A stretch of DNA of 64,000 bases, from contig CAZCXV010000001.1 of the NCBI GenBank assembly GCA_964502815.1, positions 7,907 to 71,906 on the forward strand, written 5' to 3'. The DNA is from an uncultured Gammaproteobacteria bacterium (GTDB taxonomy: Bacteria > Patescibacteriota > Microgenomatia > UBA8517). Under the pieces are notes generated by a model, which saw nothing but the letters and a program-made list of their open reading frames with translations, ran no database searches and was not told the origin of the DNA. This document shows, in pieces, positions 45,579 through 61,347 of the stretch. The translations under genes were made by a program, and so were the position numbers. Positions within the stretch are counted from its first letter, which is position 1; every line of letters starts with the position of its first letter.

Positions 45579-45974
45579 TTAATTATCCTTCGTTTTTCTC
45601 TTTGTAATAATGCCACTAGTTTCAATAAAAAGCAATAGTGTACCAAGCAAGAAAGCTTGGAAAGCATATACCGAAGTTCTTTCGGACCAAATATCCACTC
45701 CAACAATTCTTAATACCCCTGCAAACAACCAAAACAAAAGTGCTATCAAATAAAACGCAACACTACGAGCATCCAATAAGAAAATTGCAAAAATAAGTGC
45801 TAAAACTACAACAATATTCACACTAATTGGCAAATATGGATGGAAATAACCAGCAGAACGCAATAAAACTAACAACATAACAAGGCCGTTAAAAATACCA
45901 ATTCTCAAATAATGAGTTTTAATCCAATGAAAAACATCGTCATTAAACATCTCAATAAATTTTGTTAATTTCAT
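45579..45974 (-). CDS. Small polytopic membrane protein (131 aa), coupled (ATGA) to the upstream 1032-aa membrane protein
   Basis: 3-4 hydrophobic helices. The start overlaps the stop of 45971..49069. Confidence 0.5.
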   Translation of the reverse strand: MKLTKFIEMFNDDVFHWIKTHYLRIGIFNGLVMLLVLLRSAGYFHPYLPISVNIVVVLALIFAIFLLDARSVAFYLIALLFWLFAGVLRIVGVDIWSERTSVYAFQAFLLGTLLLFIETSGIITKRKTKDN

Positions 45975-48900
45975 TTTCTGTCCTTTAAATAGACCGTTAA
46001 GACAATCATCGCACTTAGCGTTGCAAGTAAAACTCCCAAATAAAAATATTTCTGGTTTTCAAAGTATATCTCTAGATCGTATTCTGAAGGAGTGTCTTTT
46101 AGATACCAAGCGTTGGCATATAAATTGGCCGAAAAATGAAGTGGTGTCCCCAAGATAGCTCCACCATTTGAATAACTCAATTTAGTTTTCCAAGCTGGAT
46201 GATAATTCTCAGCAAAAATTATCACATGGGGACCAAGGACATTTTTAACTTTAGCTTTATACTTTACAGGCGAAATTTTCTCAAAAGTTATGTTTGGTGT
46301 CGCCAGAATAGGAGTATCTTTTTCCATAAACAATAATTTGTTGGTAAATACTTTTCTTACTGTAATATTATCGTAATTTATTTTTGTTCCGAGCGGGTCA
46401 TTAGTATATGGGGCGGATAAAATTACCTTCATTTCAGAATTTGTCTTAACTGGTTCATAGTAATAACTGAAATGGTTCCACTCGGGATAGTTTGGTAAAC
46501 GTTCCGTTTGAGTTTTGACTAAAGATGTCTTTGTACTTTGCCCTGCATATGAAACGCCGTTGTTTCCATAGATCTGCCGATAATCAAATTCAACCAAATA
46601 AGGAGAGAAAAAGTCAAAATTCTGCACATCAAAATCTGCTGATACGTCTGCCTTACCAATATTATATATTTCTAAATATTTCCTGCCATCTGTGTCAACT
46701 ACTCTATATCTGGCTTCACCAACGGTACCGTAACCTCCCTCGTTGAATTTTTGATTGTCAAGTACATCTACACCGACCAGATTATTGTTAACGAGGTATA
46801 TTTCGGTTTTATGATTACCCTTGGTTAAAAATATTTCCTCATATAAGATAACAGAACTATTTATGTCACTAATTTTAAATTTTTCTTTTTTTCCATCTAG
46901 TACAACTTCCAAGTCATTTGTGGGATCTATTCCAAAATCATCTAATTTATACCGCTCCAATTGAGGTCTGTAATTACCGTCCTTAGGTATATAAAAAGTG
47001 AAAAGCACTTTTGATAAATCTCTTTGAGTTAAACGATTGGCTAGTTTAGACTGTGAATAATTAAACTCCCTATATTCTCTTTCTTGAGTGTTTTCCGATA
47101 ACACTATTCTCCCCACCATCGTGTCTAGATCACTAATCTGGGCAGCTACCTTGTCGTCAGGATTCAAAAGAGTTTGTTTAGCCAAAGGTAGAGCCAAGAA
47201 CCCCTTCGCACCCGCATTATAAGGGTAATAGTAAAAAAAATTATTTGTACTATAAATCTTACCTTCAATTTCAGAGCCTATCGGAAACTTAATAAACTTC
47301 CATGGTCCATACTCTACTTTTTCAGTTAAAACTAATTCATTAGCTAACTTCGGTGCAAGACTTGGTTGATCTCCTTTCAAGAAGATATAACCTATGTTTA
47401 GCCTATCAGCCAACCCACTTGCATATTCTAATTGCCCCATCTTCATGCCAAGGTATAAGTCCTTTATTGTTTCAGATATTGCAGTGCTAGTTGCATTAAG
47501 CGCAGAGAAAACTGTCTCAACATTTGATCCCAAAGAAAGAATAGACTCAATTCCTCTATACCCCCAAGCATAGTTCTCTATCTCATCGTCTGGATAGCTA
47601 ATCACTCTTTCAGATATGTTTTTGTTTGACCAATTATTTGCATCAAAGACATATTGTGGAAATTTGACAAAAAAACCATCACTTCTACCAATCCTAAAAA
47701 TTTTTCCAGTGACTAACGGATAACAATACACTAGATTTGCTAAAACCAAAACAAGAAAAAATATATTGTTAAAAAGTACAAAGGGTTTATTAGCATCATC
47801 CTTAAAAAATTTATCTACTTTTTGATACAAAAGTCCAAATAAGGCAGCATATGAAAAAATAAGCAATGGTGTGAATATATACCAAGGACTACGGAAAAGT
47901 GAGAAAAATGGTACATGCTCACTCAACCAAACAAATACAACTCCAGTTGGATGGTGAGAACCCGCTCCCAAAAAGGTTCCCAGTAGCATCATTACAGCAA
48001 AAGACAAATAATAGTTGGTATTGGCAAATTTACCGCCTATCTTTGTTCTAATTGTTCCAACAATAAGCGACAACAGCGCCAAAGTGGGAAGTAAAATACT
48101 AAAAGCTACAAATGGAAATTTCCTAAAATAGTTGAGTGCATAAGGAATATATAATGGAAGCTTTGTAATTTGATCAAAAGCATACCAGTCCCAAGCACCT
48201 TGAAGCCGAAGGACATTTACCAAATTGGTATTTTCTGACAAACTATTAAGCCAATTAGTAAAACCAATGGCACCAATACTTGCAGATGGGGAAATACTCC
48301 CCAAAATGAATACAAGCGTAGGAATTATCCAAAATAAGTTAAATAAGAAGACTGCCAAATATATAATTAAGAGATTTCTTATTAAGAAAATAAGTTCATT
48401 TTTTCCTCTCGTAAGTATATATCCAAATTGGAAAACAAATATGATCAAATAAAGGGTTATAAAATAAGCTGGGTTTATTCCTGTTCCTGAAATCAATATC
48501 GCCAATGGGATCGAAAGAAAAGCTGCCTTTTTCCAGCTAATTTCTCTATTATTCAACCTATTTATAATTCCTAAAGCTAGAGGAATTCCAATAACCAAAG
48601 AGAGGTTGGCAACTTTAACATTCTCCCAAGTGTTGAAAAGGTACGTATTGAATGAATAGAAGACGACAAAAATAAGGTTGGCAATGCTTTTTTTACCAAA
48701 AATTGAACTTGAAAAATAATATGCTAAGTAAACAATGCCCAAAAACCAAAAAAGTAAACTAATTATTTGAACGAACTGTAAAGAGAACCCAAGTGCATAT
48801 GGCAATGCCTGGATAAAATGAAAAAGTATCCCGGCAGTTGAGCTTGAAAAATCATTACCAGCGTTGGCAATCCCATTCCAAACAAAAAACCTTCTTAGAA

Positions 48901-49069
48901 ACCAGACTAAAGGATTTAAAGGAAAGTTGGTATCAACGCCATTAATTAATGTTCCATTGACCAAGGCATTACTTTTCCCTAGAAACCAAATCAGTGGTGT
49001 AAAGCCAAGCAACAAAATCAAAGGTAAAATCGTTTTTTTCAACACACTGCTATTGATCTTTAACTTCAT
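45971..49069 (-). CDS. Very large polytopic membrane protein (1032 aa), N-terminal ~12-TM domain + ~550-aa extracytoplasmic domain + C-terminal TM; probable GT-C glycosyltransferase (AftD/DUF3367-like architecture)
   Basis: The hydrophobic N-terminal half holds multiple helices. The C-terminal anchor reads YFYLGVLLATLSAMIVLTVYL. The family assignment is tentative. Confidence 0.6.
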   Translation of the reverse strand: MKLKINSSVLKKTILPLILLLGFTPLIWFLGKSNALVNGTLINGVDTNFPLNPLVWFLRRFFVWNGIANAGNDFSSSTAGILFHFIQALPYALGFSLQFVQIISLLFWFLGIVYLAYYFSSSIFGKKSIANLIFVVFYSFNTYLFNTWENVKVANLSLVIGIPLALGIINRLNNREISWKKAAFLSIPLAILISGTGINPAYFITLYLIIFVFQFGYILTRGKNELIFLIRNLLIIYLAVFLFNLFWIIPTLVFILGSISPSASIGAIGFTNWLNSLSENTNLVNVLRLQGAWDWYAFDQITKLPLYIPYALNYFRKFPFVAFSILLPTLALLSLIVGTIRTKIGGKFANTNYYLSFAVMMLLGTFLGAGSHHPTGVVFVWLSEHVPFFSLFRSPWYIFTPLLIFSYAALFGLLYQKVDKFFKDDANKPFVLFNNIFFLVLVLANLVYCYPLVTGKIFRIGRSDGFFVKFPQYVFDANNWSNKNISERVISYPDDEIENYAWGYRGIESILSLGSNVETVFSALNATSTAISETIKDLYLGMKMGQLEYASGLADRLNIGYIFLKGDQPSLAPKLANELVLTEKVEYGPWKFIKFPIGSEIEGKIYSTNNFFYYYPYNAGAKGFLALPLAKQTLLNPDDKVAAQISDLDTMVGRIVLSENTQEREYREFNYSQSKLANRLTQRDLSKVLFTFYIPKDGNYRPQLERYKLDDFGIDPTNDLEVVLDGKKEKFKISDINSSVILYEEIFLTKGNHKTEIYLVNNNLVGVDVLDNQKFNEGGYGTVGEARYRVVDTDGRKYLEIYNIGKADVSADFDVQNFDFFSPYLVEFDYRQIYGNNGVSYAGQSTKTSLVKTQTERLPNYPEWNHFSYYYEPVKTNSEMKVILSAPYTNDPLGTKINYDNITVRKVFTNKLLFMEKDTPILATPNITFEKISPVKYKAKVKNVLGPHVIIFAENYHPAWKTKLSYSNGGAILGTPLHFSANLYANAWYLKDTPSEYDLEIYFENQKYFYLGVLLATLSAMIVLTVYLKDRK

Positions 49070-51080
49070 ATATTTGTAATTCGTTTATTACCCAAGGCGC
49101 AAATTGATGATAACCGATTTGATGTATTGTAACAAAACGTACCGGTTTTGGTAGTACATATATTTCCGTTATCCCCTTTTCGTTGGGTAGGCGTCTTTCG
49201 ACTTTATATAACTCTTGCCAAATAATTTTGTCTTGTGACCCTTCAACTAAAAATCCAACTTCATTTTGATCCTTACTGGCACTCGAGTCTATTCTAATAA
49301 GTGAAATGTTTTTACTTTTTCCAAAATCAATTGTAATACTTTGAGGATAATAATAGGCAAGAAGTGAGCTCCAATAACTATTTTTGTTTGAATCAATCAA
49401 TTTTTTGATATCATTCTGGTTATTGGTTGAGGTAATTTGATTTTCCTGTAAAAATATTTGCCTCTGATTTAATTTTTTAGATAAATATTCATTTCGAACT
49501 CTTAGCGAGATATCGCTCAAACTCCTATTATTACTATTAAAAGAAAAAGCATAGACTGATTCCACAGGAATCTTTTCTTTTTCTATTATATTTTCCATCT
49601 GTGTTTGATCATAGAAAAAGCCAAAACCAAAATCATCAGCTTCTTTGTATCCTTGATCTTGTATTCCCCAAAGAAATTCATCTCTAAAAAAGTAAACCGG
49701 TATCTTTTGCTTCTGTTCATAATTTACAAGCAGTAATTGCCCAAACCCAGATTGAAAAGGTAAGATTTTTTTATTTATTCCATAATGTGCTCTATCCGAT
49801 TCTACGTACACCAAAGATTTTTGAGGGAGAATAGGTAAATACGAGTTAACTGCATAAACAATATCTTTTCTTATTTTGGCCTGCGAAAGTAAATGCTCAA
49901 ATGTTTTCTGAAGATAATAAACATTAGTGACAACAAGCAGTGCGAAAAATAACACAACAATGGTCTTATAGAAAAACTTCTTTGGGTTGTCGAATTTACT
50001 AAATAAATAACCAATATAGATACTCGCGGCAATGCTTGCTGTATAAAAATATCTTGAGTCGGGATAGATCAAATATTTGTTAGTTATCACCAAAGGAAGA
50101 CTACTAAATAGGTTGAAAGTGAAATACAAGAAAAGTATTTTTGTATTTTTTCTAGTTGTCAAAAAGACTAGCAAAGTTACAATAGCTCCAAGCAATAAAG
50201 CTATTAACTCGAAAGAATAATCATTACTGACAACCCAGATTTTATTTGGGTCTGGCAAAAACTCAATTAGCCTCGGGGTAAGCCAATTGGCTGCATTTAT
50301 CAAAACATCCTGAGGAACAAATATTTGACTTATAAATTTTAGCGGTAGTGTCGCTAGATTATATACAATATTATTTAGATAGTCAGTAGGTTGACTAGTT
50401 AAATTGGTAGTCGCACTCGCTTGGCCAAAGAAAATATAAGAAAATTTCAGAAACAAATACATAAATGCTACTGAGAGTAATTTTAGAAACCTATTTAAGT
50501 TTTTTTCGATGAAGATTGAGCTCACTATTAATATACCATAGAAGGTTAAAGCATTTTCCCTATAAAGAAGTGAAACAAAGATAAAAACGAGTGAAAGCCA
50601 GAATCTTCGTTTGTAGGTCAAAAGAGATAATATTCCAAATAATGTTGACCCCAAAATACCTTCAAATGTGCCAATCCAAGTGATTGCTTGGTGATTGCTT
50701 GCGCTCAATGCAAAAAAAAGTGCTCCTAAAAAGGCTGATTTTTTCTTTTTTAGTAAATCGAGTAGAAAAAAATATAGAGAAACTACCACAGTAGAATGAA
50801 GCAAAATACTCACAACAAAATATGGTTTTTCGTCAAGTCCAAAAAGATTGAATATAGTCGATTTTGTAAGAAGCGATAATGGCGTAAAGTGTGCCAAAAG
50901 CCCTCCTTTTAATATTATGGCAAGCGCATCAGATAGGGAATTTGAAAACACATAAATATAGTGTCCAAAACTATGCCATTCGTCTTGTTCGAAGTAACTA
51001 TTGATTATTTGGCTATAGAAGACTATTACTATCACCAGCAATATTGAAACAGGTAGAATATGTTTTACAAGATTTTTCAT
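49050..51080 (-). CDS. Polytopic membrane protein with C-terminal F5/8 type C (discoidin) carbohydrate-binding domain
   Basis: About 11 N-terminal TM helices. The C-terminus NSYWSSLLAYYYPQSITIDFGKSKNISLIRIDSSASKDQNEVGFLVEGSQDKIIWQELY fits the discoidin pattern (W.s...pqw..iDlg....i..i.i......y.ve.S.dg..W). Confidence 0.7.
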   Translation of the reverse strand: MKNLVKHILPVSILLVIVIVFYSQIINSYFEQDEWHSFGHYIYVFSNSLSDALAIILKGGLLAHFTPLSLLTKSTIFNLFGLDEKPYFVVSILLHSTVVVSLYFFLLDLLKKKKSAFLGALFFALSASNHQAITWIGTFEGILGSTLFGILSLLTYKRRFWLSLVFIFVSLLYRENALTFYGILIVSSIFIEKNLNRFLKLLSVAFMYLFLKFSYIFFGQASATTNLTSQPTDYLNNIVYNLATLPLKFISQIFVPQDVLINAANWLTPRLIEFLPDPNKIWVVSNDYSFELIALLLGAIVTLLVFLTTRKNTKILFLYFTFNLFSSLPLVITNKYLIYPDSRYFYTASIAASIYIGYLFSKFDNPKKFFYKTIVVLFFALLVVTNVYYLQKTFEHLLSQAKIRKDIVYAVNSYLPILPQKSLVYVESDRAHYGINKKILPFQSGFGQLLLVNYEQKQKIPVYFFRDEFLWGIQDQGYKEADDFGFGFFYDQTQMENIIEKEKIPVESVYAFSFNSNNRSLSDISLRVRNEYLSKKLNQRQIFLQENQITSTNNQNDIKKLIDSNKNSYWSSLLAYYYPQSITIDFGKSKNISLIRIDSSASKDQNEVGFLVEGSQDKIIWQELYKVERRLPNEKGITEIYVLPKPVRFVTIHQIGYHQFAPWVINELQIYEVKDQ

Positions 51081-51784
51081 TTCTCAGCCACAACCACACA
51101 ATATGAAGAGTGATTTGTATCTATTTTGGTAACAATATTTGCTAAGAAAATTGGTAAAGGATAGAAACCTACTCCAATAATTTTATTAATTTTAAATTTA
51201 TACGCCTTTAGAAGTTGAACCAATGCTTTAGTAGTCATAACATTCAGATGTGGATACATATTTTCCCCCATATCACTTGTGTAATATTCAGCATTAGGTC
51301 TATGACCAATTGGGTAGATGCGTGAGATATATGGCCCCGTATATGGTTGATTTCCAAGTACTAGAGCGAAAATATTATGGTACGCTGCCAAATTTTCTGT
51401 AGAAATTATAAATTTTCCACCTTTTCTTAATGTTCTTGCCGCTTCGGCAACAAATTTATCAACATTAACAAGATGCTCAATAACTTCAGTTGCTGTAAGG
51501 CAGTCAATACTTGCAGAATCAATTGGCCAAGACTTATTAAGATCTGCTGTTTTTATCTGAATTTTATTATTTCTTGCTGCTTTGACATATTTTGCACTAA
51601 TCTCAATCCCAAATATTTTCGTCGTACCTATTTGTTGTGCACGCTTCAAGGTTTTGGCTCCATCATAGCAACCCAAATCTAAATACTTTACATTAATTCC
51701 TCTAGGTAAGGCCTTAATAACCTCCTCTTCAATTTTTACTTCGTAACTCGCGCCTAGCTTTTTTATATATTTTCCTAATTTCAT
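51077..51784 (-). CDS. Class I SAM-dependent methyltransferase
   Basis: VKYLDLGCYDGAKTL (motif I) and CLTATEVIEHLVN. Confidence 0.8.
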   Translation of the reverse strand: MKLGKYIKKLGASYEVKIEEEVIKALPRGINVKYLDLGCYDGAKTLKRAQQIGTTKIFGIEISAKYVKAARNNKIQIKTADLNKSWPIDSASIDCLTATEVIEHLVNVDKFVAEAARTLRKGGKFIISTENLAAYHNIFALVLGNQPYTGPYISRIYPIGHRPNAEYYTSDMGENMYPHLNVMTTKALVQLLKAYKFKINKIIGVGFYPLPIFLANIVTKIDTNHSSYCVVVAEK

Positions 51785-51788
51785 ATAG

Positions 51789-52751
51789 TCATATCAAAAA
51801 TCTTCTTTTGATAAACACCACCAAATAACTTACAACAGAAACAAAACACATAAGTGGATGGAGCAACCAAGCTTTCTGGCGCTCTTTAATACAATTAAAC
51901 ACGCCTTCAATAAACGGACCAATTATCGAAGCGCAATAGACAGCACTCATGACAAAACGTAATTTTGGTATACCCTCAACCCAAGTTCTTTTCTTTTCAT
52001 CTTTTCTATTTAGATACTTATTGCCAATCTTAAGGCGTTTGTTGATAAAATCCCTCAACGAGTTAACATGGTAATGGTAAATACCAACACCAGGGATCCT
52101 AGCAAATTTTCTAAAACCTGCCTCTTTAGCAAAGAAGGAGAAATTTGACTCTTCAAATTTTTGCGAGTACTGGCCAACTTTTTTAATAACTCTCTTGTTC
52201 CATAAAAACCCATTTGCACCTAAGGGATAACTGGAATTCTTTGGAATTGTAAGCTCGATATAGCCTGATTTTTGTTTTTGCTCCAATTTTCCAGCAATAC
52301 TTCGAGAAAATGGGTCTGCAATATGCGCAACCATGCAATAGGTGTTGTAAATACTCTCACCTTTTTTTGGAAAATAATAAGATTCGACACCAAATAGATT
52401 CGGGTCGTCAAGTAATGGTTTTACCATTTTAGCTAACCAATACTTACTTATTATCTCATTATCAGAATCAAGTAGGGCAACTATTTCCCCTTTTGAATGC
52501 TTTATACCAATTGATTTTGCTGATTCCGGATCTACTTTAGGGTTATCAATCACTTTTGCTCCATGTTTATGGGCAATTGTACGTGTAGCATCTTTTGATC
52601 CTCCATCAATAACAAAAATTTCATACTTATTTTTAGGGTAGATTTGTTTTTTAACACTTTTCAAGCATTTTTCCAGATATATTTGAGAATTGTATGTAGG
52701 TACAATAAAGGTGACAAATGGATGTTGCATCTCGTGCTTATTGTACCTCAA
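51789..52751 (-). CDS. Glycosyltransferase family 2
   Basis: FVTFIVPTYNSQIYLEKCLKSVKKQIYPKNKYEIFVIDGGSKDAT...LLDSDN. A C-terminal TM is present. Confidence 0.8.
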   Translation of the reverse strand: MRYNKHEMQHPFVTFIVPTYNSQIYLEKCLKSVKKQIYPKNKYEIFVIDGGSKDATRTIAHKHGAKVIDNPKVDPESAKSIGIKHSKGEIVALLDSDNEIISKYWLAKMVKPLLDDPNLFGVESYYFPKKGESIYNTYCMVAHIADPFSRSIAGKLEQKQKSGYIELTIPKNSSYPLGANGFLWNKRVIKKVGQYSQKFEESNFSFFAKEAGFRKFARIPGVGIYHYHVNSLRDFINKRLKIGNKYLNRKDEKKRTWVEGIPKLRFVMSAVYCASIIGPFIEGVFNCIKERQKAWLLHPLMCFVSVVSYLVVFIKRRFLI

Positions 52752-55449
52752 CTTTTGGAATTTGGATAATCATCTCCTCAAGAACTACTTGACCTGGAAT
52801 CTTAAAGTTAGATAATCTAATTTTATCTATCTTAGTTCCACCTGCAGGGAGGATGAAACTATAGTAATGTAGCTTTCCATCATAGATGATTTTAATTTCA
52901 GATTTAGTTTGTGTTAGCCATTTTTCACCCCCGTCTCCCCACCAATATGGTTGGAGTGTACCGGTGTAGTTAATAGCAGATAATCGGTCAATAAAACCTT
53001 TTTTATTATTAACAAAGATAAAAGGGTTATTGATAAAGTCTTGAATCTCTGTAACATTGGCGGAGGAAAATTCTTCTGGGATAACAATGAATTCTGAAAT
53101 CATTGGTGAATCCTGCCCTAAGGTATCAAAAATAGTCATTTTTACATATCTTGCTAAAGAAGGTTTAAGTTTGACTTCTTGAGGAATTTGAATATCAATA
53201 GAGAAGTCCTCCACTTTTGCAACCTCTTGCCAAGATTTTCCATCAAGCGAGGTTTCAATTACATAGCTTATTGGAAAGTTATTTCTAGATCCACCTTGCC
53301 AATTTACTTTTCCTAGTTTTGTCAACTGGGGTAACTCAACTTGCAAAAACGTCTGTTCGGTAGTCCAAGCAGTTCTATCAGATTGCCAAACTGTTGACTC
53401 ATCCATATCAGCAAGATGTTTTTCGATTCTTGCTTGCCATTGACTACTGGTCTTTATTTTAATTTTTTGATAATACATTTCGATATACTTTTTGTATCCA
53501 ATGGCCATCTCTTCTAATTTAGGTTCTTTCCAAGGTGTACCACTGAAATCTCTGGTCGCTGATTTCAAATTGACAAAAGGATAAACAGTTGCAGTACTGT
53601 TGAGAGGAATTGCCTTCAAAGCAAGTATAACTTCTAATGGATGAATACTTGATATCGGCTCTTTAAAACTAATCTCAAGATCAGATGCTGACCACGTAGG
53701 TAATCCTTTATTTTCAGATACTTGTGTTTCAGAGACAGTAGGAAGATTAAAAGCTGGCTCAAAGGATTTTAAACTGCCTTCAAAGTAAGCCCTTATACTA
53801 TTTGATGTGTCAACAAGTCCAGCTTGTGAATACCAAAAGGAATGTATTTTACCTGGATCAACTTTTTCTTTTGCAAGTGTTTTGACTAAACTGTCAAAAT
53901 CTGTAATTAAAAAAAAGTCATAGCGATCTACCCCATATCTCCAAGCAAATGATCCACTGTCTGGAACCATGGCGGCAGAAATAGCATCTCTAAAATTCCT
54001 TTGTCTGCCTGGAGCAACATCAAAATACAACACATCACCCTTGTTAAGGGTCGGGAGTAGCACCTTAAGGTCCTGATAGAAACTCTTAACTGGAAAGCTT
54101 CTAGTTTCAAGAATTTTTCTTTGATACAAAAAGGCATTAACAAGATTACCCACAGTCACAAGAACAATCAAAGCAGCTGCAATGTTGCTTATTTTGTTTT
54201 TTGATTCTCTCAAATTTACAAACAGAAAGCCCAATATTCCCGCGTAAATAAAGAATGAATGCGCAATGTATCTGTTTACTGTATCGTAGGCAACAGTTGG
54301 ATAATAGGAGGAATATGCCAAAATGTTTGCAACCATCCAGAAAAACAGAAATAGAAAGATTCGATTACCTTTTTTCAATGAAACGAAGATACAAAGAGCA
54401 AAGATCAGCACCAAACCCCCCACAAAAGCAGTTAACTGATATATTTGGCCAACTCCGAGAAGAAGGTTGGTAAAAATCGACCTAGACCAAAGAGACCATA
54501 ATATCAACAGAAAGACAAAAATAGGAATCAAGATTTTTCTTTTTTTATGATTTCTCAATAATAATATTATGATTACAAACGAAATCATAAATAGAATTAT
54601 TCTTTCAACTGTTAAATTTTTTGAAATATTTAGTACAGGGTTAAATAGCCAATCTGGAAAGATTAAATTAGCCAAAGAAGACAAATATCCATATGCTAGA
54701 TACAGCTTTCCACTCAATATTCCCAAAACGTAGTCTTTTGCAACTGAAGACCTACTGTCACCAGCAAAAAGAATTTTGTTGAAAATAACAAAAAAAGGTA
54801 AAATTCTAAATATTGGAAATACAATAGTCTTAATTGATTTAAAAGAAAAAAAGAAAATTAATTCAAAAGCTAGGACAACCAAAAATAAATAGTGAGTTCT
54901 ACTGATAGCAATATGCATAGAGAAAAAAAATGTGGCTAAAGCGATAAGATACCAATAAATTTTCTGTTGTTTAAAATATTTCCAATAAAACAAGAAAAAC
55001 AATCCTACTAAGATAATCGTTATGCTTGTAGTTGCACTATTTGCCATTCGCCAAAATCCGTCCGAGGTTGTGTAACCTGCTCCGAAAACGAGTCCGGCAA
55101 CTTTCCCCTCCCTCTCACCCAAAACGGCGGTAAATACCTTATATACTGAAATAGTTGCTAAACAATAAAGAATAATCAACAAAGCAAAATAGAACACTGG
55201 ATTGTGGCCAAAAAAACTGTAAATTGGGATAAATGGAATGGCTGCATACTTATATACTCCCTCACCTAAGGGCCCTTTCCCAAAAAAACCTACTGATTCT
55301 TGTAAGTTGGCTAATTTAATAAACAAAGCATTGTCGTCTTCCCAAGGTTGCATCCAAAGCATCTGTCCGTAAGAGACAAATACTAGCAAAATCAAAACTA
55401 ACCAAAAGTTTGTCAACAGTTTTTTCACAATACCACAATGATACACCAT
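52738..55449 (-). CDS. Large polytopic membrane protein (903 aa) with C-terminal F5/8 type C (discoidin) domain
   Basis: About 13 N-terminal TM helices. The C-terminus VWQSDRTAWTTEQTFLQVELPQLTKLGKVNWQGGSRNNFPISYVIETSLDGKSWQEVAKV fits the discoidin pattern. Confidence 0.7.
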   Translation of the reverse strand: MVYHCGIVKKLLTNFWLVLILLVFVSYGQMLWMQPWEDDNALFIKLANLQESVGFFGKGPLGEGVYKYAAIPFIPIYSFFGHNPVFYFALLIILYCLATISVYKVFTAVLGEREGKVAGLVFGAGYTTSDGFWRMANSATTSITIILVGLFFLFYWKYFKQQKIYWYLIALATFFFSMHIAISRTHYLFLVVLAFELIFFFSFKSIKTIVFPIFRILPFFVIFNKILFAGDSRSSVAKDYVLGILSGKLYLAYGYLSSLANLIFPDWLFNPVLNISKNLTVERIILFMISFVIIILLLRNHKKRKILIPIFVFLLILWSLWSRSIFTNLLLGVGQIYQLTAFVGGLVLIFALCIFVSLKKGNRIFLFLFFWMVANILAYSSYYPTVAYDTVNRYIAHSFFIYAGILGFLFVNLRESKNKISNIAAALIVLVTVGNLVNAFLYQRKILETRSFPVKSFYQDLKVLLPTLNKGDVLYFDVAPGRQRNFRDAISAAMVPDSGSFAWRYGVDRYDFFLITDFDSLVKTLAKEKVDPGKIHSFWYSQAGLVDTSNSIRAYFEGSLKSFEPAFNLPTVSETQVSENKGLPTWSASDLEISFKEPISSIHPLEVILALKAIPLNSTATVYPFVNLKSATRDFSGTPWKEPKLEEMAIGYKKYIEMYYQKIKIKTSSQWQARIEKHLADMDESTVWQSDRTAWTTEQTFLQVELPQLTKLGKVNWQGGSRNNFPISYVIETSLDGKSWQEVAKVEDFSIDIQIPQEVKLKPSLARYVKMTIFDTLGQDSPMISEFIVIPEEFSSANVTEIQDFINNPFIFVNNKKGFIDRLSAINYTGTLQPYWWGDGGEKWLTQTKSEIKIIYDGKLHYYSFILPAGGTKIDKIRLSNFKIPGQVVLEEMIIQIPKVEVQ

Positions 55450-55503: not shown

Positions 55504-56646
55504 CTACTTTTTCTTAAAGCGAAGTAAAAACCAAAGGCTAGATATCCCCAAAAGTGTTTTTATTATTACAAAAGGATTTGCTCCTTTTGATTTTCCACCT
55601 GCCCTGTCGTGCCAGTAAATTGGTACTTCTGTAAACTTATATTTTTTTTGCAGAGCTTTAACAAAAAATTCTGGTAAAAACATCGCACTTCTATCTTCAG
55701 AGTTTATTTCAATCGATTCAATAACTCTTCTTCTCCACAAAAATACTGATGAAATTTGTCTAAATGGAATGCCCAGTAAATTCTTAATTAACAAATGGAA
55801 TGCCCAAGAGTTAAAATCACGAATTATACCTTCATCCCTGTAGACCCTATACCCAATTGCTCCATCATATCCGCGAACAGCTTCTGTAAATTTGTTAAAT
55901 TCCTTAAAGTCAAACTGACCATCAGCAGGTGCCAAAAAAACAAGGTGCTTTTTTGCAGAATAGAGTGCAGTTTTCATAGCTCCGGTAAAACCTTTGTTTT
56001 TTTGATGATGGATAGCTCGTATTTTTTTGTTTCTCTTGGCAAGTCTATCTATTATCCTTCCTGTATTATCAGTAGAGCCGTCGTTAACTAATACTATTTC
56101 AAAATCTTTAGATTCTTTACCTACATTTTCCAAAATATCAGAAACAACTTTTTCAATTGTTTTTTCTTCATTAAATGCTGGAATGACAATAGAAACCGAT
56201 TCTTTCTCGATATCTTTTAAGAATTTTTTACTTGAGCCAATTATTTTAGCCGGCACACCAACAACTAAAGAGTATGGTGGAACAACCATTCTCTCAGAAA
56301 CAACAGCTCCTGCCCCGATAACAGAATGGTGACCAATTTTTGCACCTCGCAAAATAACAGCGTTGGTACCAATAAAACAAAATTCACCAATTTCAGTTGG
56401 TAGTGCATCCACATCCGGGTGTCGCCTTTCAGAAATACACCTTCTTACTGTTGAATGTGTAAGTATTTGTGCACCACTTGAAATGTCTGTGCCACGTCCC
56501 ACTTTTAGCGGCGCATAAAGTGCATCAATTAAACAAAACGATCCTACCCAAACCCTCGGGCCTATTTCAGGATTTCCTAAAATCCAAGCATGCTTATTGT
56601 ATGGATTGTCTGGTAGCCCGTGATCGAAGCTGTCTACACTCATCAT
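55504..56646 (-). CDS. Bifunctional fusion: N-terminal hexapeptide-repeat (LbH) acyl/acetyltransferase + C-terminal GT2 polyprenyl-phosphate sugar synthase (DPM1/ArnC-like) with C-terminal membrane anchor
   Basis: The N-terminus carries hexapeptide repeats ...EIGEFCFIGTNAVILRGAKIGHHSVIGAGAVVSERMVVPPYSLVVGVPAKIIG. The C-terminus reads VSIVIPAFNEEKTIEKVVSDILENV...FEIVLVNDGSTDNTGRII...FLAPADGQ. The terminal hydrophobic segment is LLGISSLWFLLRF. Confidence 0.75.
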   Translation of the reverse strand: MMSVDSFDHGLPDNPYNKHAWILGNPEIGPRVWVGSFCLIDALYAPLKVGRGTDISSGAQILTHSTVRRCISERRHPDVDALPTEIGEFCFIGTNAVILRGAKIGHHSVIGAGAVVSERMVVPPYSLVVGVPAKIIGSSKKFLKDIEKESVSIVIPAFNEEKTIEKVVSDILENVGKESKDFEIVLVNDGSTDNTGRIIDRLAKRNKKIRAIHHQKNKGFTGAMKTALYSAKKHLVFLAPADGQFDFKEFNKFTEAVRGYDGAIGYRVYRDEGIIRDFNSWAFHLLIKNLLGIPFRQISSVFLWRRRVIESIEINSEDRSAMFLPEFFVKALQKKYKFTEVPIYWHDRAGGKSKGANPFVIIKTLLGISSLWFLLRFKKK

Positions 56647-57770
56647 TTTGTAAGCTTAATAATGCTGTCAATAACTAGGTCTTGCTCTGCCAATGTCATT
56701 GTAGGATACAAAGGAAGTGCAATGGTTTGGAGAGTTGCCTTTTCTGTTTCTGGAAGGCTAATTTTTCCAAACATATTTTGATATGGTTTTTCCAAGTGAC
56801 TTGCCATTACTCCACGTCGTGTCGATATCCCACTATCAGCAAGTTTTTGCATCAATTCATCTCTTGAGATAGTTGAATTTTCCTTCAATCTAATAACATA
56901 GGTTTGCCAATTGTGTTTGTAGCTTTCTGGAACAAAAGGTGGAACGATTAAATTGCTTCCCCAAAAAGCCTTAGTGTATCTTGCTACCAACTTCTCTCTT
57001 TTCACTAAAATTTCCGGAAGCTTTTTCATTTGTTCTATGCCAATTGCGGCCTGAATATCAGTCATTCTAAAATTATAACCAATTGTTGTGTATTCTTCAT
57101 GAATTACCTTTTTAGCATCATGGCGGGCCACATCTGAAATATTCATACCATGATGCCTCAAAGCCCTAGCTTTGTCTGCAAGTTCTTTGTCGTTTGTAGT
57201 GATCATTCCCCCTTCACCTGTAGTAATTACTTTTCTAGGGTGAAAGCTAAAACAAGCAATGGGTGCCTTTGCGCCAACTTTTTCTCCATTATATTCACTA
57301 CCTATTGCAGGGGCAGCGTCCTCAACCACGATAAGTTTGTGCTCTTTGGCAATCTCATTAATTTGATCCATATCACAAGGCATTCCAATCTGGTCAACCG
57401 GCATAATTACTTTTGTTTTTTTAGTAATTTTCCTTTCTATTTCTTTTGGATCGAGGTTGTAGGTTAATGGGTCAATATCAACAAATATGGGTGTTGCTCC
57501 AGCATGGACAATCACGTTTACAGTTGCTATAAACGTAAATGAAGGAACAATGACTTCATCTCCAGGACCTACATCAAAAAGTTTAAGAGCCATAAAAAGA
57601 GCAGTGGTTGCCGAGGTTGTTGCAATTGCGTATTTTGTACCGATGTAGCTTGCAACCACTTCTTCAAACTCAGCTACTTTCGGTCCCTGGGTTACCCAAC
57701 CACTAGCCAATACCTCATTAACTGCTTTTTTCTCTTCATCATCAAATAGTGGTTTTTGAATGGGAATCAT
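56643..57770 (-). CDS. DegT/DnrJ/EryC1/StrS-family PLP-dependent sugar aminotransferase
   Basis: KAVNEVLASGWVTQGPKVAEFEEVVASYIGTKYAIATTSATTALFMAL. The PLP-lysine region is ...FSFHPRKVITTGEGG. Confidence 0.9.
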   Translation of the reverse strand: MIPIQKPLFDDEEKKAVNEVLASGWVTQGPKVAEFEEVVASYIGTKYAIATTSATTALFMALKLFDVGPGDEVIVPSFTFIATVNVIVHAGATPIFVDIDPLTYNLDPKEIERKITKKTKVIMPVDQIGMPCDMDQINEIAKEHKLIVVEDAAPAIGSEYNGEKVGAKAPIACFSFHPRKVITTGEGGMITTNDKELADKARALRHHGMNISDVARHDAKKVIHEEYTTIGYNFRMTDIQAAIGIEQMKKLPEILVKREKLVARYTKAFWGSNLIVPPFVPESYKHNWQTYVIRLKENSTISRDELMQKLADSGISTRRGVMASHLEKPYQNMFGKISLPETEKATLQTIALPLYPTMTLAEQDLVIDSIIKLTK

Positions 57771-58723
57771 TTTCGGTTATACCAGGTAACTAGCTTCTTC
57801 ATTCCTTCTTCCAAGGTTACTTCGGGTTTAAATCCAAGATCGTTTTTAACTTTTGTCAAATCAGCTTGTCTTCTAGATACATAGCCAATTTGGCCATTTC
57901 CTGGACGATGCTCAATCTTCAGTTTACTACCAGTCGCTTTTAAAAGAGCAGAGGCTAAATCGTTCAAACTAACTTGCTTTCCAAATCCTAAGTTATAAAA
58001 ACCCTCTATAACTTTACTTTTTAAAGCTTTAACGACTATTTTTGCAACGTCCTCAACATAGACAAAATCAAAAGTTTGTTTACCATCCCCAGAAATTACT
58101 GGCGACTCGTTAGAATTTATTCTTTCAAGCCATTTAATAAGTACTTCGGTATAAATTCCTGAAGCATCCATTCTTGGACCATATACATTAAAGGGTCTGA
58201 AACAAACATAACTTAATCCGAATTGTCTATGAAAGGCCTTAATAAACTGCTCATTTGCAATTTTAGCTGCGCCATACATGGCATCATTCCTGTATGGGTC
58301 TGTTTCTTTCATTGGAAGCTTCAGAGGATCACCATACACAGAAGCCGAAGAGTTGAAAACCATTTTTTTAACTTTGTGTTTTGCACAGGATTCAAAAACA
58401 TTAAATGTTCCATCCACAAGTATTTCATTACAAAGGCGTGGATCGTCATCACAGTTTCTATTTTTAATGACTGCCATATGTACAACCCAGTCTGCTCTTT
58501 TAATGTATTTATTTGTTACTTTGGGGTCTCTAATGTCTGCTTTAACAAATTGTACCCTTTTATCTTTTAAAAGGTGTGTAACATTTTCTTTTGTCCCTCT
58601 TATAAGATTGTCAATAATAATTATTTTGGAAACCTTTGCAGTCTTATCTTTTAAGAGGTAGTCAACAATCCACGAACCGATAAAGCCTGCTCCTCCTGTG
58701 ATAACCACCTTTCTTGAGGTCAT
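57767..58723 (-). CDS. NAD-dependent sugar epimerase/dehydratase (extended SDR)
   Basis: VVITGGAGFIGSWIVDYLL Rossmann motif and YGAAK (YxxxK) catalytic motif. Confidence 0.85.
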   Translation of the reverse strand: MTSRKVVITGGAGFIGSWIVDYLLKDKTAKVSKIIIIDNLIRGTKENVTHLLKDKRVQFVKADIRDPKVTNKYIKRADWVVHMAVIKNRNCDDDPRLCNEILVDGTFNVFESCAKHKVKKMVFNSSASVYGDPLKLPMKETDPYRNDAMYGAAKIANEQFIKAFHRQFGLSYVCFRPFNVYGPRMDASGIYTEVLIKWLERINSNESPVISGDGKQTFDFVYVEDVAKIVVKALKSKVIEGFYNLGFGKQVSLNDLASALLKATGSKLKIEHRPGNGQIGYVSRRQADLTKVKNDLGFKPEVTLEEGMKKLVTWYNRK

Positions 58724-59826
58724 CTTTCAAAAAATTCTCCTATTTTGTCGCAGACATACTTAACTTCTTCAGGAGTTAAATATGGATGCATAGGCAGAGA
58801 AAGTATGTCCTTTGCATATTTTTCTGTGATTGGAAAATCACCTTTTTTATATCCCAAAAATGCGGTTGATTTATTTAGGTGGACCGGAATCGGATAATGG
58901 ATGCCCGTTCCTACTCCATTTTGTTTAAGAAATTCAATTAATTTATCTCTTTTAGGAGTGCGAATAACATATAAATGAAAATTGCTTTTATTAGGTTTTT
59001 CCCAAATCTTTGGTGTGACTACTGGAATACTGGAGAGTAGTTTATTGTAAAGCTTTGCAGATTCTATTCTTTTAGAATTTCTTACGTTTAATCTTTTTAA
59101 GTTGTGGAGCAGAAAAGCTGCATGAATTGTTGCTAATCTACTGTTGTAGCCATAAACATCATGGTGATACTTTTTAGTTTGGCCAACATCTCTCATGGCC
59201 TTAATCTTCTTATATAGTTTCAGGCTATTTGTTGTAATCGCCCCACCATCACCAGATGCACCAAGATTTTTGGCGGGATAGAAAGAAAAAGCTGCAATTG
59301 TCCCAAGAGAGCCACACCTTTTGCCATTAAACTCTGCACCGTGCGCCTGACAAGCATCTTCAATTACAAAAAGTTTATGCTTCTTTGCAATTTTATTAAT
59401 TTCTTTCATATCACAAGGCTGACCGTACAAGTGAACCGGAATAATTGCTTTCGTTTTTTTAGTAACTGCTTTTTCAATTCTTTCTGGGTCAATTAGATAA
59501 GTCTCTGAATCAACATCTACAAGGATCGGTTTTGCCCCTAAATCAATGATTGGCATAACAGTGGCAATAAAGGTATTAGCTGGAACAATTACTTCATCCC
59601 CTGATCCAATACCTAAACTTCGAAGCGAGAGAAGGAGAGCGTCTCTTCCAGACGCTAATCCAAGAGCGTATTTAGTTCCTGTATATTTTGCAAATGCTTG
59701 CTCAAATTCACCAACTTCTTGCCCTAAAATAAATCTCCCGTTTGTCAAAATATCCAGAACTGATTCATCGATCTCTTTCTTTACCTCTTTGTATTGTGAT
59801 TTTAAATCAATAAAGGAAACGTTCAT
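58720..59826 (-). CDS. DegT/DnrJ/EryC1/StrS-family PLP-dependent sugar aminotransferase (second copy)
   Basis: GQEVGEFEQAFAKYTGTKYALGLASGRDALLLSL...FSFYPAKNLGASGDGG. Confidence 0.9.
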   Translation of the reverse strand: MNVSFIDLKSQYKEVKKEIDESVLDILTNGRFILGQEVGEFEQAFAKYTGTKYALGLASGRDALLLSLRSLGIGSGDEVIVPANTFIATVMPIIDLGAKPILVDVDSETYLIDPERIEKAVTKKTKAIIPVHLYGQPCDMKEINKIAKKHKLFVIEDACQAHGAEFNGKRCGSLGTIAAFSFYPAKNLGASGDGGAITTNSLKLYKKIKAMRDVGQTKKYHHDVYGYNSRLATIHAAFLLHNLKRLNVRNSKRIESAKLYNKLLSSIPVVTPKIWEKPNKSNFHLYVIRTPKRDKLIEFLKQNGVGTGIHYPIPVHLNKSTAFLGYKKGDFPITEKYAKDILSLPMHPYLTPEEVKYVCDKIGEFFER

Positions 59827-59831
59827 TTTGT

Positions 59832-60275
59832 TTATTTTTTCTTAATAATTCTTGCCGGGTTACCAACAACCACTACTCCTTCCGGAACATCTTTGACCAC
59901 TACTGCTCCCGCTCCAATAATAACATTATTTCCAATGTTTACTGGAAGTATTGTGGCATTTGAGCCAATACTCACCCTATCACCAACAATTGTTTTTCTC
60001 ATAGTCCATTTTGTTTTATCTCCATCAGGCCAATCAAACAAATCGTTTATAAACATTACCCCATGGGCAACAAAACAGTCCTTTCCAATTACCACTCCTT
60101 CACACACAAAGGTATGACTACTGATTCTTGATCTATCACCAATACTTACACCTTTTTGAATTTCAACAAAAGGTCCTATGAATACCCCATCTCCCAAAGT
60201 GCACCCATACATATTTACCATCTCAGGGAGAGGTACTTTTACATCTTTTCCTTTAGTTACGTCTCTTTCAGCCAT
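59832..60275 (-). CDS. Hexapeptide-repeat N-acetyltransferase (WbpD/PglD-like amino-sugar N-acetyltransferase)
   Basis: 147 aa. LGDGVFIGPFVEIQKGVSIGDRSRISSHTFVCEGVVIGKDCFVAHGVMFIND...IGAGAVVVKDVPEGVVVVGNPAR. Confidence 0.8.
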   Translation of the reverse strand: MAERDVTKGKDVKVPLPEMVNMYGCTLGDGVFIGPFVEIQKGVSIGDRSRISSHTFVCEGVVIGKDCFVAHGVMFINDLFDWPDGDKTKWTMRKTIVGDRVSIGSNATILPVNIGNNVIIGAGAVVVKDVPEGVVVVGNPARIIKKK

Positions 60276-60277
60276 AT

Positions 60278-61294
60278 TTAAATTAAACTTACTTTTACAC
60301 TTTTTCTTGACGATTCATTTGCTTTTTCCAAAATATTTACAACACTCATCCCAAATTCCCCACTACTCATGGTGGTTTTTCTTTCAGAAATAGCCGTAAG
60401 GAATTCTTGACTAAGAGTTTTAAGTCCTTCAACTATGTCTATCCTAGGGGCCCAAACATCTCCTGATCTGTAACCAATCTTTGTCTGTAACACTTTACTT
60501 GTAGAATTTTTATGTTTATTCACAGTCACTCCTTTATCGTAAATTTTAACTTTTTCTGATGGCTCAACATCATTATAGACAATCATTTTCTTTGTGCCAA
60601 CAATCATCATTTGTCTTATCTTTAGTGGGGACAGCCAACTAACATGGATATGACAGGTAGTCTTTCCTGGATAATCCAAATGCAAGTGGCATACCTCTTC
60701 TTGCTTATCGTAATAAGATGCACCAACGGAGGTTAGAGATTTTGGAAACTTACCCAATAAATATTGAATAATTGAAATATCGTGGGTAGCAAGATCAAAA
60801 ACAACATTTGAGTCTGGTTGAAAAAGGCCGAGATTGGCTCTAGTGGAATCAATATGCAATACTTCTCCAATTTCGCCACTGTCGATAATTTCTTTTAGTT
60901 TTCTAACTTCTTGCGTAAATAAAAACGTGTGATCAACCATAAGTATTTTATTATTCTTTTGCGCAATCTCGACTAATTCTTTTGCTTCTTTAGTGTCAAG
61001 CGTCATTGGCTTTTCAATTAAAACATCTTTACCAGATTCGAGTGCTGCCTTAGCAAGTGGATGGTGAAATTTGGTGGGAGTTGCAATCACTACCGCATCT
61101 ACCTCACTATCATTTAGAATATCCTCGTAATTTTTAGTTAACATTATAGAAGGATAGGCTTTTCTTACCTTTTTAAGCTTTACAATATCTAAGTCACAAC
61201 AGTACAAAACCTCACAATCAAGATTGTTAGAAAAATTTCTAAGAAGATTAGGTCCCCAATAACCATACCCAACAATTGCGATCTTTTTTAACAT
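60278..61294 (-). CDS. Gfo/Idh/MocA-family NAD-dependent sugar oxidoreductase (WbpB-like UDP-sugar dehydrogenase)
   Basis: The Rossmann N-terminus MLKKIAIVGYGYWGPNLLRNF starts at ATG 61294..61292. The track ORF extends 19 codons further 5', which is probably not translated. Confidence 0.85.
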   Translation of the reverse strand: MLKKIAIVGYGYWGPNLLRNFSNNLDCEVLYCCDLDIVKLKKVRKAYPSIMLTKNYEDILNDSEVDAVVIATPTKFHHPLAKAALESGKDVLIEKPMTLDTKEAKELVEIAQKNNKILMVDHTFLFTQEVRKLKEIIDSGEIGEVLHIDSTRANLGLFQPDSNVVFDLATHDISIIQYLLGKFPKSLTSVGASYYDKQEEVCHLHLDYPGKTTCHIHVSWLSPLKIRQMMIVGTKKMIVYNDVEPSEKVKIYDKGVTVNKHKNSTSKVLQTKIGYRSGDVWAPRIDIVEGLKTLSQEFLTAISERKTTMSSGEFGMSVVNILEKANESSRKSVKVSLI

Positions 61295-61347
61295 ATAGAG
61301 ATTTAATATAGGATCCAAAATATATATACTACCAAAACCAAAGATAA

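Follow-up and report, generated by a model that had tools for sequence, protein, structure and literature searches.

In the membrane glycosyltransferases EmbC, AftD and ORF12, carbohydrate-binding modules (CBMs) bind the acceptor (PMC11127046). AftD has three CBMs, one of them structurally homologous to the CBM32 entry 4A45, and arabinan binding has been described for it (bioRxiv 10.1101/2019.12.22.885152). ORF12, the founder of family GT136, binds unmodified O-antigen through a C-terminal CBM, which catalysis does not require (PMC11127046). Enzymes of the GT-C_A class combine an N-terminal module of seven transmembrane (TM) helices with a variable C-terminal module, and their external loop 1 contains a pair of alpha-helices, with the catalytic acid on the first one (PMC13503287). 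Multi-component extracytoplasmic glycosylation is known in Gram-negative and in Gram-positive bacteria (PMC11127046, PMC8035078). Here we describe two related proteins encoded in a stretch of 64,000 nucleotides (the window; assembly GCA_964502815.1, contig CAZCXV010000001.1, positions 7,907 to 71,906), deposited as an uncultured Gammaproteobacteria bacterium of GTDB lineage Patescibacteriota; Microgenomatia; UBA8517. D903 is the 903-amino-acid (aa) product of the open reading frame (ORF) 52738-55449, and D676 is the 676-aa product of the ORF 49050-51080. We propose, with a probability of roughly 60%, that D903 and D676 represent an undescribed PMT_2/ArnT-related branch of the GT-C_A enzymes in Microgenomates-type bacteria of the Candidate Phyla Radiation (CPR), and that they act on an extracytoplasmic acceptor glycan with a CBM32 domain as tether. 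The two proteins and the genes around them are as follows.

52738..55449, minus strand: D903, predicted GT-C-class glycosyltransferase, 903 aa, 13 TM helices, N-in/C-out (ORF, Pfam, AlphaFold2 (AF2) model, topology, homology to D676, Foldseek match to AftD 6w98)
55333..55341, minus strand: codons of E37-D38-D39 of D903 (motif WEDDNAL), candidate catalytic base region (invariant columns, helix 37-47)
53092..53457, minus strand: CBM32/discoidin domain of D903, residues 665-786 (Pfam PF00754, CBM32 profile matches in the PDB, Foldseek)
51789..52751, minus strand: GT2 glycosyltransferase, 320 aa (313 aa from the ATG at 52730), two C-terminal TM helices (Pfam PF00535)
51077..51784, minus strand: class-I S-adenosylmethionine (SAM)-dependent methyltransferase, cytoplasmic, 235 aa, without a TM segment (Pfam Methyltransf_11/23/25)
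49050..51080, minus strand: D676, predicted GT-C-class glycosyltransferase, 676 aa, 11 TM helices, N-in/C-out (ORF, Pfam, AF2 model, topology, hhalign to PMT_2)
50979..50984, minus strand: codons of D33-E34 of D676 (motif FEQDEW), candidate catalytic base (conservation, helix 33-46, PMT_2 alignment)
49089..49433, minus strand: CBM32/discoidin domain of D676, residues 550-664 (Pfam PF00754 and PF22633, Foldseek)
45971..49069, minus strand: AftD-like GT-C candidate, 1032 aa (homologs with PF11847, synteny)
45579..45974, minus strand: 4-TM protein, 131 aa (TM helices, conserved position)

The preliminary description of this locus had called the two proteins paralogous, and profile comparison bears this out as a remote relationship: D903 and D676 are, on that evidence, genuine, anciently diverged paralogs. 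When the two proteins are compared directly with BLASTP, the lectin domains alone align (23% identity, E 3e-4). Families were therefore represented by 24 full-length D903 homologs (35-48% identity) and 77 D676 homologs, with alignments of 25 and 75 sequences, respectively. The two family profiles align in hhalign at a probability of 99.5% (E 1.6e-22) over 602 columns with 17% identity, from TM1 through the alpha/beta domain and into the discoidin domain. The possibility that the paralogy is a mere echo of the common lectin domain was rejected: a hidden Markov model (HMM) of the D676 family, in which the discoidin domain has no columns since it is missing from most members, still matches the D903 core at residues 15-476 and also residues 510-559 (E 3.9e-12). 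D903 has two extra TM helices (13 versus 11).

A GT-C fold of the two predicted cores is well supported by profile homology and by motif architecture. The Pfam family PMT_2 (PF13231) is matched by 17 of the 75 D676-family members, with a best E-value of 1.4e-6. Two D676 homologs scanned singly, P0097 and P0049, score 26.1 and 24.4 bits against a gathering threshold of 26.1 bits. A PMT_2 comparison profile was made from 13 PMT_2 proteins of the window and related loci, and this profile matches the solved GT-C enzyme AglB (E 2e-5). In hhalign the D676 family aligns with it at 97.3% probability (E 1.7e-11); the 177 aligned columns run from TM1 to TM6, and FEQDEW of D676 falls on the "HxDE" motif of PMT_2. 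D903 aligns more weakly (65%, E 5.9e-5) in the same TM2-TM5 region as D676. Homology to an established GT-C family thus runs directly from the D676 family to PMT_2, and from D903 by way of the D676 family. The cores had first been described as GT-C-like, and the similarity on which such a claim depends is present in the PMT_2 match with its DE motif in register, in the 17 of 75 PMT_2 matches and in the homology of D903 to D676. D903 and D676 are filed here as a sister family related to PMT_2, and not as members, because both window proteins fall below the PMT_2 gathering threshold, with no match to the model at E <= 0.1.

PMT_2 is the sole established family to which the cores are linked; it includes protein O-mannosyltransferases besides ArnT-like modifiers of lipids and glycans, and the DE motif is a PMT signature. 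D903 and D676 might accordingly be read as PMT-type protein O-glycosyltransferases of secreted or surface proteins, such as an S-layer protein or pilins, with the CBM32 domain recognising existing glycans or helping to find the substrate. We consider such a role unlikely. The conserved partners of the two genes build glycans (the AftD-like GT-C and the amino-sugar genes, with Wzx and Wzy_C elsewhere in the island), the cassette holds no conserved candidate glycoprotein gene in the loci compared, and the PMT_2 membership itself is borderline. Action on a glycan acceptor is the reading that we prefer.

The AF2 models of D676 (predicted local distance difference test (pLDDT) 94.5, predicted TM-score (pTM) 0.91) and of D903 (pLDDT 85.3, pTM 0.73) resemble GT-C_A enzymes in several respects. 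The membrane module, compared by helix count and order, agrees: 11 membrane-length helices in D676 and 13 in D903 are followed by soluble domains. External loop 1 has the expected form in both models. In D676, TM1 (8-27) is followed by helices 33-46 and 49-56, and D33-E34 open helix 33-46; in D903, TM1 (15-32) is followed by helices 37-47 and 71-80, and D38-D39 lie near the start of helix 37-47. The pair D33-E34 is conserved in at least 90% of the 75 D676-family members, D38 and D39 are invariant in the 25 members of the D903 family, and WEDDNAL of D903 aligns with QDEW of D676 when the family profiles are compared with hhalign. D33-E34 in D676 and D38-D39 in D903 are candidates for the catalytic base. 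An invariant Arg is found in a late external loop of each protein (R343 in D676, R393 in D903), and in GT-C_A enzymes the late external loop is the place where the donor phosphate binds (PMC13503287). More generally, it is in the external loops that both families conserve polar and charged positions.

The topology was derived by taking the AF2 helices as TM segments and counting Lys and Arg residues (K+R) per loop across the 75 and 25 sequences. Predicted inside loops longer than one residue reach K+R densities of 0.25-0.53 in both families, and predicted outside loops longer than two residues stay at 0.00-0.17. D676 is accordingly modelled with 11 and D903 with 13 TM helices, both with the N-terminus inside and the C-terminus outside, and the alpha/beta domain and CBM32 module would be extracytoplasmic because the C-terminus is outside. 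The discoidin domains had been expected on the outer face, and the positive-inside statistics place them there and not in the cytoplasm.

Both lectin domains are of the CBM32 type, as judged by Pfam scores above the cut-off and by a matching beta-sandwich fold, and they are predicted to bind carbohydrate. Residues 665-786 of D903 match F5_F8_type_C (PF00754) with 45.4 bits (E 1.1e-11) and residues 550-664 of D676 with 38.0 bits (E 2.1e-9), the gathering cut-off being 28.2 bits; the related model PF22633 matches too (37.1 bits for D676). The D903-family profile finds CBM32 modules of clostridial enzymes in the PDB (E 2.3e-13). In Foldseek, the D903 model matches CBM32 structures at a TM-score (target) of 0.74-0.78 and the D676 model matches the CBM32 entries 4a42 and 2v72 at 0.77-0.79, with a root-mean-square deviation (rmsd) of 2.3-3.1 A between both lectin domains and CBM32 crystal structures. 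The soluble part of D676 consists, in the AF2 model, of a stalk helix (369-414), an alpha/beta domain (421-540) and the CBM32 domain (550-664) at the C-terminus. In D903 the stalk helix (419-464) is followed by an alpha/beta domain (~472-560), a beta-sandwich (~563-627), the CBM32 domain (665-786) and a second beta-sandwich (~829-896), so that about 115 residues, forming a beta-sandwich, come after the discoidin domain. The description of the discoidin domain as C-terminal in both proteins is thus right for D676, where it is terminal (550-664), and not for D903, where beta-sandwich modules flank it on both sides. The alpha/beta domain has motifs of its own, PFQSGFGQ and GFGYF in D676 and FAWRYG.DRYD in D903.

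The discoidin domain is present in all 24 of the 24 D903 homologs. In the D676 family it occurs in 30 of 75 members (absent in 45), and in 50 of the best 150 library representatives matched by the D676 core profile (absent in 100 of the 150). The domain is an accessory of the D676 family, because only about a third of the relatives carry it; members without it retain the full core and the alpha/beta domain. This patchy presence fits an optional accessory that tethers the acceptor better than an integral ruler.

The distinction matters for what the lectin domain does. The preliminary description had suggested an enzyme that recognises the growing glycan, such as a processive transferase or a polymerase with a product ruler. 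Recognition of a glycan is in keeping with the outward CBM32 domains and with what CBMs are established to do in EmbC, AftD and ORF12, but there is no sign of a ruler for a growing chain. If D903 and D676 were processive extracytoplasmic polymerases with the discoidin domain as molecular ruler of product length, the stalk helix (369-414 in D676, 419-464 in D903) could serve, in the models, to keep the soluble domains off the membrane. A CBM can affect the chain length made by a GT-C enzyme, as EmbC CBM mutants, in the form in which they are quoted by a later paper, yield less and shorter arabinan (PMC11127046). Such a ruler is nonetheless quite improbable here: the discoidin domain is missing in 45 of 75 and 100 of 150 D676-family representatives, about two-thirds of the family, and an integral ruler should not be dispensable; the sequences hold no processivity signal; and the island already has a Wzy_C-type candidate for a polymerase or ligase. 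Nothing in the data speaks for a ruler, a polymerase or processivity, and tethering of the acceptor is the function that we favor for the domain.

A very improbable reading is that the discoidin domains are adhesins for host-cell glycans on a core that is mainly an anchor or catalytically dead. The CBM32 modules do face outward, modules of this type usually have ligands of the Gal, GalNAc or GlcNAc type on foreign glycans (as judged from the PDB matches), and CPR bacteria are commonly episymbionts. However, core residues, the acidic motif and the Arg among them, are invariant or almost invariant across the families, a sign of a working active site; at every locus examined the genes are co-directional with, and embedded among, glycan-synthesis genes; and lectin-less members keep the entire core together with the alpha/beta domain.

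The ORFs of D903 and D676 are both real and lie on the minus strand, in a low-GC region (~35%) in which nearly all genes are on that strand. They bracket the genes of a GT2 (51789-52751) and a class-I SAM methyltransferase (51077-51784), and the picture of two large polytopic discoidin proteins on either side of this pair stands, with ORFs, Pfam domains, hydropathy and AlphaFold helices in agreement. All four genes had also been described as translationally overlapped, which is true in part. The methyltransferase and D676 genes overlap by 4 nt, whereas the GT2 and methyltransferase genes are separated by a 4-nt gap, and D903 and GT2 share 14 nt only with the TTG at 52751 as GT2 start. The alternative start, an ATG at 52730, leaves a 7-nt gap to D903. 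The GT2 start (52728-52751, minus strand) is ambiguous: the longest ORF begins at the TTG and overlaps the D903 stop region, and the ATG seven codons later has GAGG ~14 nt upstream. The genes of a 1032-aa and a 131-aa protein come directly after D676, as first described; the first 20 nt of the 1032-aa gene lie within the end of D676, and 4 nt are shared by the 1032-aa and 131-aa genes.

This arrangement is conserved. The order of a D903-like gene, a GT2 gene (~320 aa), a methyltransferase gene (~235 aa), a D676-like gene and an AftD-like gene (~1020 aa) recurs in three related loci (L011, L013, L014), and a ~130-aa 4-TM gene closes the cassette in L013 and L014, where homologs of 129 aa and 132 aa directly follow the AftD-like gene. 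In L014 (GCA_964583685.1), the D903-like gene is set apart from the GT2/methyltransferase/D676 block by three inserted genes (4436-8066), for a B12-binding radical-SAM protein, a GT2 and a second radical-SAM protein, which suggests additional sugar tailoring in that lineage. D676-like and AftD-like genes are also adjacent in L001, L003 and L009, there preceded by a gene for a NodU-type carbamoyltransferase, and the AftD-like gene adjoins D676-family genes in seven loci.

The GT2 of the window (hereafter GT2_320) matches PF00535 with E 2.9e-26, and a 64%-identical ortholog occupies the same position in L011. The methyltransferase (Pfam, E 4e-15) is conserved in position in L011, L013 and L014. 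It would act in the cytoplasm because it has no TM segment, and the extracytoplasmic methyl-sugar transfer that had been considered for this locus does not fit an enzyme so placed. The 1032-aa protein has ~9 N-terminal TM helices, an extracytoplasmic domain of ~555 aa and a C-terminal TM anchor. It has at least 318 homologs, those among the matches listed being 43-50% identical over the full length. PF11847 (GT-C_AftD, DUF3367) is precomputed on ~30 of 120 listed homologs, and several homologs carry the NCBI names 'alpha-(1->3)-arabinofuranosyltransferase family' or DUF3367; the window protein itself has no Pfam match at E <= 0.1. The 131-aa protein could be a flippase for lipid-linked sugars or a subunit.

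Upstream of D903 lies a second group of genes, which run in the same direction.

55504..56646, minus strand: HexGT2, a fusion of a hexapeptide (LbH) acyltransferase and a GT2, 380 aa, one C-terminal TM helix (Pfam, PDB matches, NCBIfam ArnC)
56643..61351, minus strand: five nucleotide-sugar tailoring genes (Pfam, nearest NCBIfam models, synteny in L001 and L003), listed singly in the next five lines
56643-57770, minus strand: DegT aminotransferase (Pfam)
57767-58723, minus strand: SDR epimerase/dehydratase (Pfam)
58720-59826, minus strand: DegT aminotransferase (Pfam)
59832-60275, minus strand: hexapeptide acetyltransferase (Pfam)
60278-61351, minus strand: GFO/IDH/MocA oxidoreductase (Pfam)
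61348..63663, minus strand: canonical PMT_2 GT-C glycosyltransferase, 771 aa, head of the co-directional gene string (Pfam PMT_2)

HexGT2 (55504-56646) is encoded directly before D903. Its residues 149-355 match DPMS (5mlz, 1e-11), ArnC (9hwj, 9.6e-11) and GtrB (5eke, 4e-9) in the PDB, and the NCBIfam ArnC model is matched over its length with 6.8e-17, below the equivalog cut-off. Directly upstream of the D903 orthologs of L001, L003 and L004 lie HexGT2 homologs of 58-65% identity, and L005 has a copy of 58% identity ~6 kb upstream. This unusual fusion points to a coupling between the N-acylation of an amino sugar and its loading onto polyprenyl phosphate, and HexGT2 is likely the maker of the lipid-linked donor of D903. 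The tailoring genes are nearest to the NCBIfam models PseC/ArnB, 4,6-dehydratase/epimerase and UDP-GlcNAc 3-dehydrogenase, all below the equivalog cut-offs, and together the five genes indicate, by their predicted functions, an acetamido- or diamino-deoxy sugar. The 771-aa protein (61348-63663) matches PMT_2 (E 6.6e-20), PMT (3.8e-14) and STT3 (1e-6), and this PMT_2 GT-C and the tailoring genes upstream of D903 are syntenic in L001 and L003. In L001 (5629-7713) and L003 (4346-6430), DegT aminotransferase and SDR are fused in one 694-aa protein, where the window has two overlapping genes (57767-59826).

Taken together, these genes would make up a pathway of the following kind. A nucleotide amino sugar would be tailored by the cytoplasmic enzymes and loaded onto polyprenyl phosphate, the presumed carrier, by a membrane-associated GT2 at the cytoplasmic face; the lipid-linked sugar would then be flipped to the outer face. 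Outside the membrane, D903, D676 and the AftD-like enzyme would each transfer a sugar to a surface glycan, the putative acceptor, with the acidic pair of external loop 1 as base (D33-E34 in D676, D38-D39 in D903). The outward alpha/beta and CBM32 domains may keep the acceptor polysaccharide near the active site, as do the CBMs of EmbC, AftD and ORF12 (GT136). Cassette, upstream amino-sugar genes and HexGT2 would in this way decorate or extend a cell-surface glycan. Which GT2 serves which GT-C, and what the methyltransferase acts on, are matters of inference. A broader scheme is speculative, and we think it rather doubtful as a whole: a Microgenomates-specific glycan assembly line akin to mycobacterial arabinan and lipoarabinomannan synthesis may have evolved from PMT_2-type enzymes, with three GT-Cs (two tethered by CBM32, one AftD-like) and a new 4-TM flippase or subunit that build an envelope polymer, or heavily decorate it, with lipid-linked sugars of the amino, methylated and carbamoylated kinds. 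The methyltransferase would then act on the polyprenyl-phosphate-linked sugar before flipping, and the paired CBM32 domains would read successive product stages and so order the reactions.

Several results weigh against reading D903 and D676 as GT-C enzymes of such a pathway. Among the Pfam and NCBIfam models, at E <= 0.1, neither protein has a GT-C match, and NCBIfam yields nothing for either. Sequence searches of the PDB with the single proteins and with the family profiles return CBM32 modules only and no GT-C chain. Foldseek searches of the PDB with the full-length models rank AftD (6w98) first for D903 (E 1.7e-8) and 23rd for D676 (E 9e-6), where it is the sole non-CBM match in the top 50, all other matches listed for either protein being CBM32 modules, but superposition is poor (TM-score 0.17-0.28, rmsd 20-31 A across both proteins); the match is a long local alignment, and much of its score may come from common CBM-type domains. 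Against a viral library, Foldseek returns lectin-type matches and two unnamed membrane proteins. In hhalign, neither the D903 nor the D676 family aligns significantly with the neighbouring AftD-like family (8.9% and 6.9%), and the AftD-like family profile does not match the AftD chain among the PDB sequences. The idea that all three large proteins form one paralogous set was dropped at these probabilities of 8.9% and 6.9%. As to the partners, the PDB relatives of GT2_320 are generic GT2s and not specifically DPMS- or GtrB-like, and the 131-aa 4-TM protein matches no GtrA, flippase or other family of Pfam or NCBIfam at E <= 0.1. That the cores are not glycosyltransferases at all but, for instance, transporters or sensors, the PMT_2 signal being a compositional artefact of hydrophobic helices, could appeal to the lack of a direct curated-model match for the window proteins and to the poor AftD superposition, but is scarcely credible in view of the 97.3% hhalign match, 177 columns long, that keeps the DE motif in register, the same TM2-TM5 register reached independently for D903, the 38,888 library representatives at E <= 1e-10 against a core-only profile, and the concentration of conserved polar and charged positions in external loops.

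The family of GT-C_A-type enzymes proposed here is sizeable. The D676-core profile matches 889 representatives (50%-identity clusters) at E <= 1e-30 and 38,888 at E <= 1e-10, and the latter number indicates, at the level of profile matches, that the D676 core belongs to a very large superfamily. The D903 type is less common: 185,579 species-representative genomes yield 10 loci (L003-L012). Where a source is named, it is Woesebacteria, Daviesbacteria, Microgenomates or Patescibacteria. Six of the 10 D903-family loci are titled "uncultured Gammaproteobacteria" (L004, L006, L008, L009, L010, L011), with a GC content of 31-35% in four and 37-41% in two. The Gammaproteobacteria titles of these six metagenome-assembled genomes look wrong and are doubtful; several share neighbourhoods with Woesebacteria and Microgenomates loci. 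Tandem pairs of D903-type genes are found in L001 (10001-15378), L003 (9974-15351) and L005 (7416-12727), with 35-46% identity to D903 of the window, which is paired instead with the smaller paralog D676. No paper on this family, or on fusions of GT-C and discoidin domains in CPR bacteria, turned up in literature searches.

The cassette is part of a wider glycan island (10000-44300 and 61348-63663), which also holds several GT4s and several GT2s besides the following genes.

42527..44278, minus strand: NodU/CmcH-type carbamoyltransferase (Pfam; NCBIfam NodU 4e-40, below cut-off)
36005-37789: PTPS_related membrane protein
31988-33262: Wzx-type flippase
18897-20312: Wzy_C protein

Five canonical PMT_2 proteins are encoded in the window (16359-17900, 25805-27193, 29045-30412, 39806-41434 and 61348-63663), and at least nine GT-C-type enzymes fall within 64 kb of a presumably very small genome. 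Two further polytopic proteins on the minus strand, 33252-35855 (867 aa, ~10 TM helices) and 37782-39068 (428 aa, ~11 TM helices), have no Pfam match at E <= 1e-4 and are not matched by the D903, D676, AftD-like or PMT_2 profiles. The NodU/CmcH-type carbamoyltransferase recurs near D676-like and AftD-like genes in L001, L003, L009, L013 and L014, and in the window it adjoins a gene of the ornithine/aspartate carbamoyltransferase family (44493-45413, minus strand), which hints at a glycan bearing O-carbamoyl groups. A gene for a Ser/Thr protein kinase (17891-18904, minus strand) lies between a PMT_2 gene and the Wzy_C gene. Outside these groups, a 947-aa protein (6385-9228, minus strand) ends in a Tox-REase-9 domain (E 6e-8), and this domain indicates a predicted polymorphic toxin. 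Searches for tRNA genes and Rfam families found none in the 64-kb window.

The cell envelope of CPR bacteria (Patescibacteria) is little known, and it probably matters for their episymbiotic lifestyle. With at least 889 clusters (50% identity, E <= 1e-30), the D676 family is sizeable; this uncharacterised GT-C family has no curated model for its core, and the candidate catalytic residues, the high-confidence models and the six-gene cassette are concrete targets for finding the surface glycan. What is new is an uncurated PMT_2-related family, largely confined to Microgenomates-type genomes, and a six-gene cassette with two of its paralogs, whereas the mechanistic principle is already known. The preliminary description implied more novelty than there is: the family itself is new, but the design of a GT-C core with a CBM has been documented before.

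The closest described counterparts are AftD and the Emb proteins. Like the mycobacterial arabinofuranosyltransferases AftD (6W98) and EmbA/B/C, D903 and D676 join a polytopic core, predicted to be GT-C, to large extracytoplasmic domains that include beta-sandwich CBMs, and like them they are encoded in neighbourhoods with several GT-Cs and presumably use lipid-linked donors. Unlike AftD (~1400 aa, three CBMs), D903 and D676 are smaller (903 and 676 aa), have a single CBM32 each and come from a different phylum (CPR), and profile comparison of their families with the AftD-like family, next-door member included, gives no significant match. No genes of a decaprenyl-phospho-arabinose pathway were seen, which also sets the locus apart from the mycobacterial system. 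With PMT_2/GT39/GT83 enzymes (PMTs, ArnT), the sole curated family with a detectable sequence link, the two proteins share the N-in/C-out topology and an extracytoplasmic C-terminal domain. The gene order, too, resembles the Arn pathway (ArnB/ArnC/ArnT): DegT aminotransferases and an ArnC-like HexGT2 precede the GT-C D903. D903 and D676 differ from PMT_2 enzymes and ArnT in the motifs of their alpha/beta domain and in the added CBM32, and their acceptor need not be lipid A or protein.

The set of a GT2, a small multi-TM protein and a GT-C recalls the three-component systems GtrA-GtrB-Gtr*, CsbB-GtcA-YfhO and ORF15-ORF14-ORF12, and a comparable charging of the donor is presumed here (PMC11127046, PMC8035078). 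As in those systems, a GtrB/DPMS/ArnC-type synthase (HexGT2) is encoded with the GT-C. The dispensable C-terminal CBM of ORF12 also parallels the patchy occurrence of the discoidin domain in the D676 family. Unlike three-component systems, the cassette has three GT-Cs and a cytoplasmic methyltransferase between GT2 and GT-C; the 131-aa protein matches no GtrA/GtcA-family model, nor one of ArnE/F, and GT2_320 is not clearly of the GtrB/DPMS subtype. The lectin domains have the fold and Pfam family of the CBM32s of glycoside hydrolases (4LKS, 4A42, 2V72, 2J1A), but here the module sits on a membrane glycosyltransferase, and at 16-26% identity the ligand specificity is not transferable; the residues with which CBM32 modules contact their ligands vary. 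D903 and D676 would be the third independent fusion of a lectin module with a GT-C enzyme, after Emb/AftD and GT136, and they support, without revealing a new mechanism, a general rule: to hold their acceptor, GT-C enzymes that act on polymers recruit CBMs.

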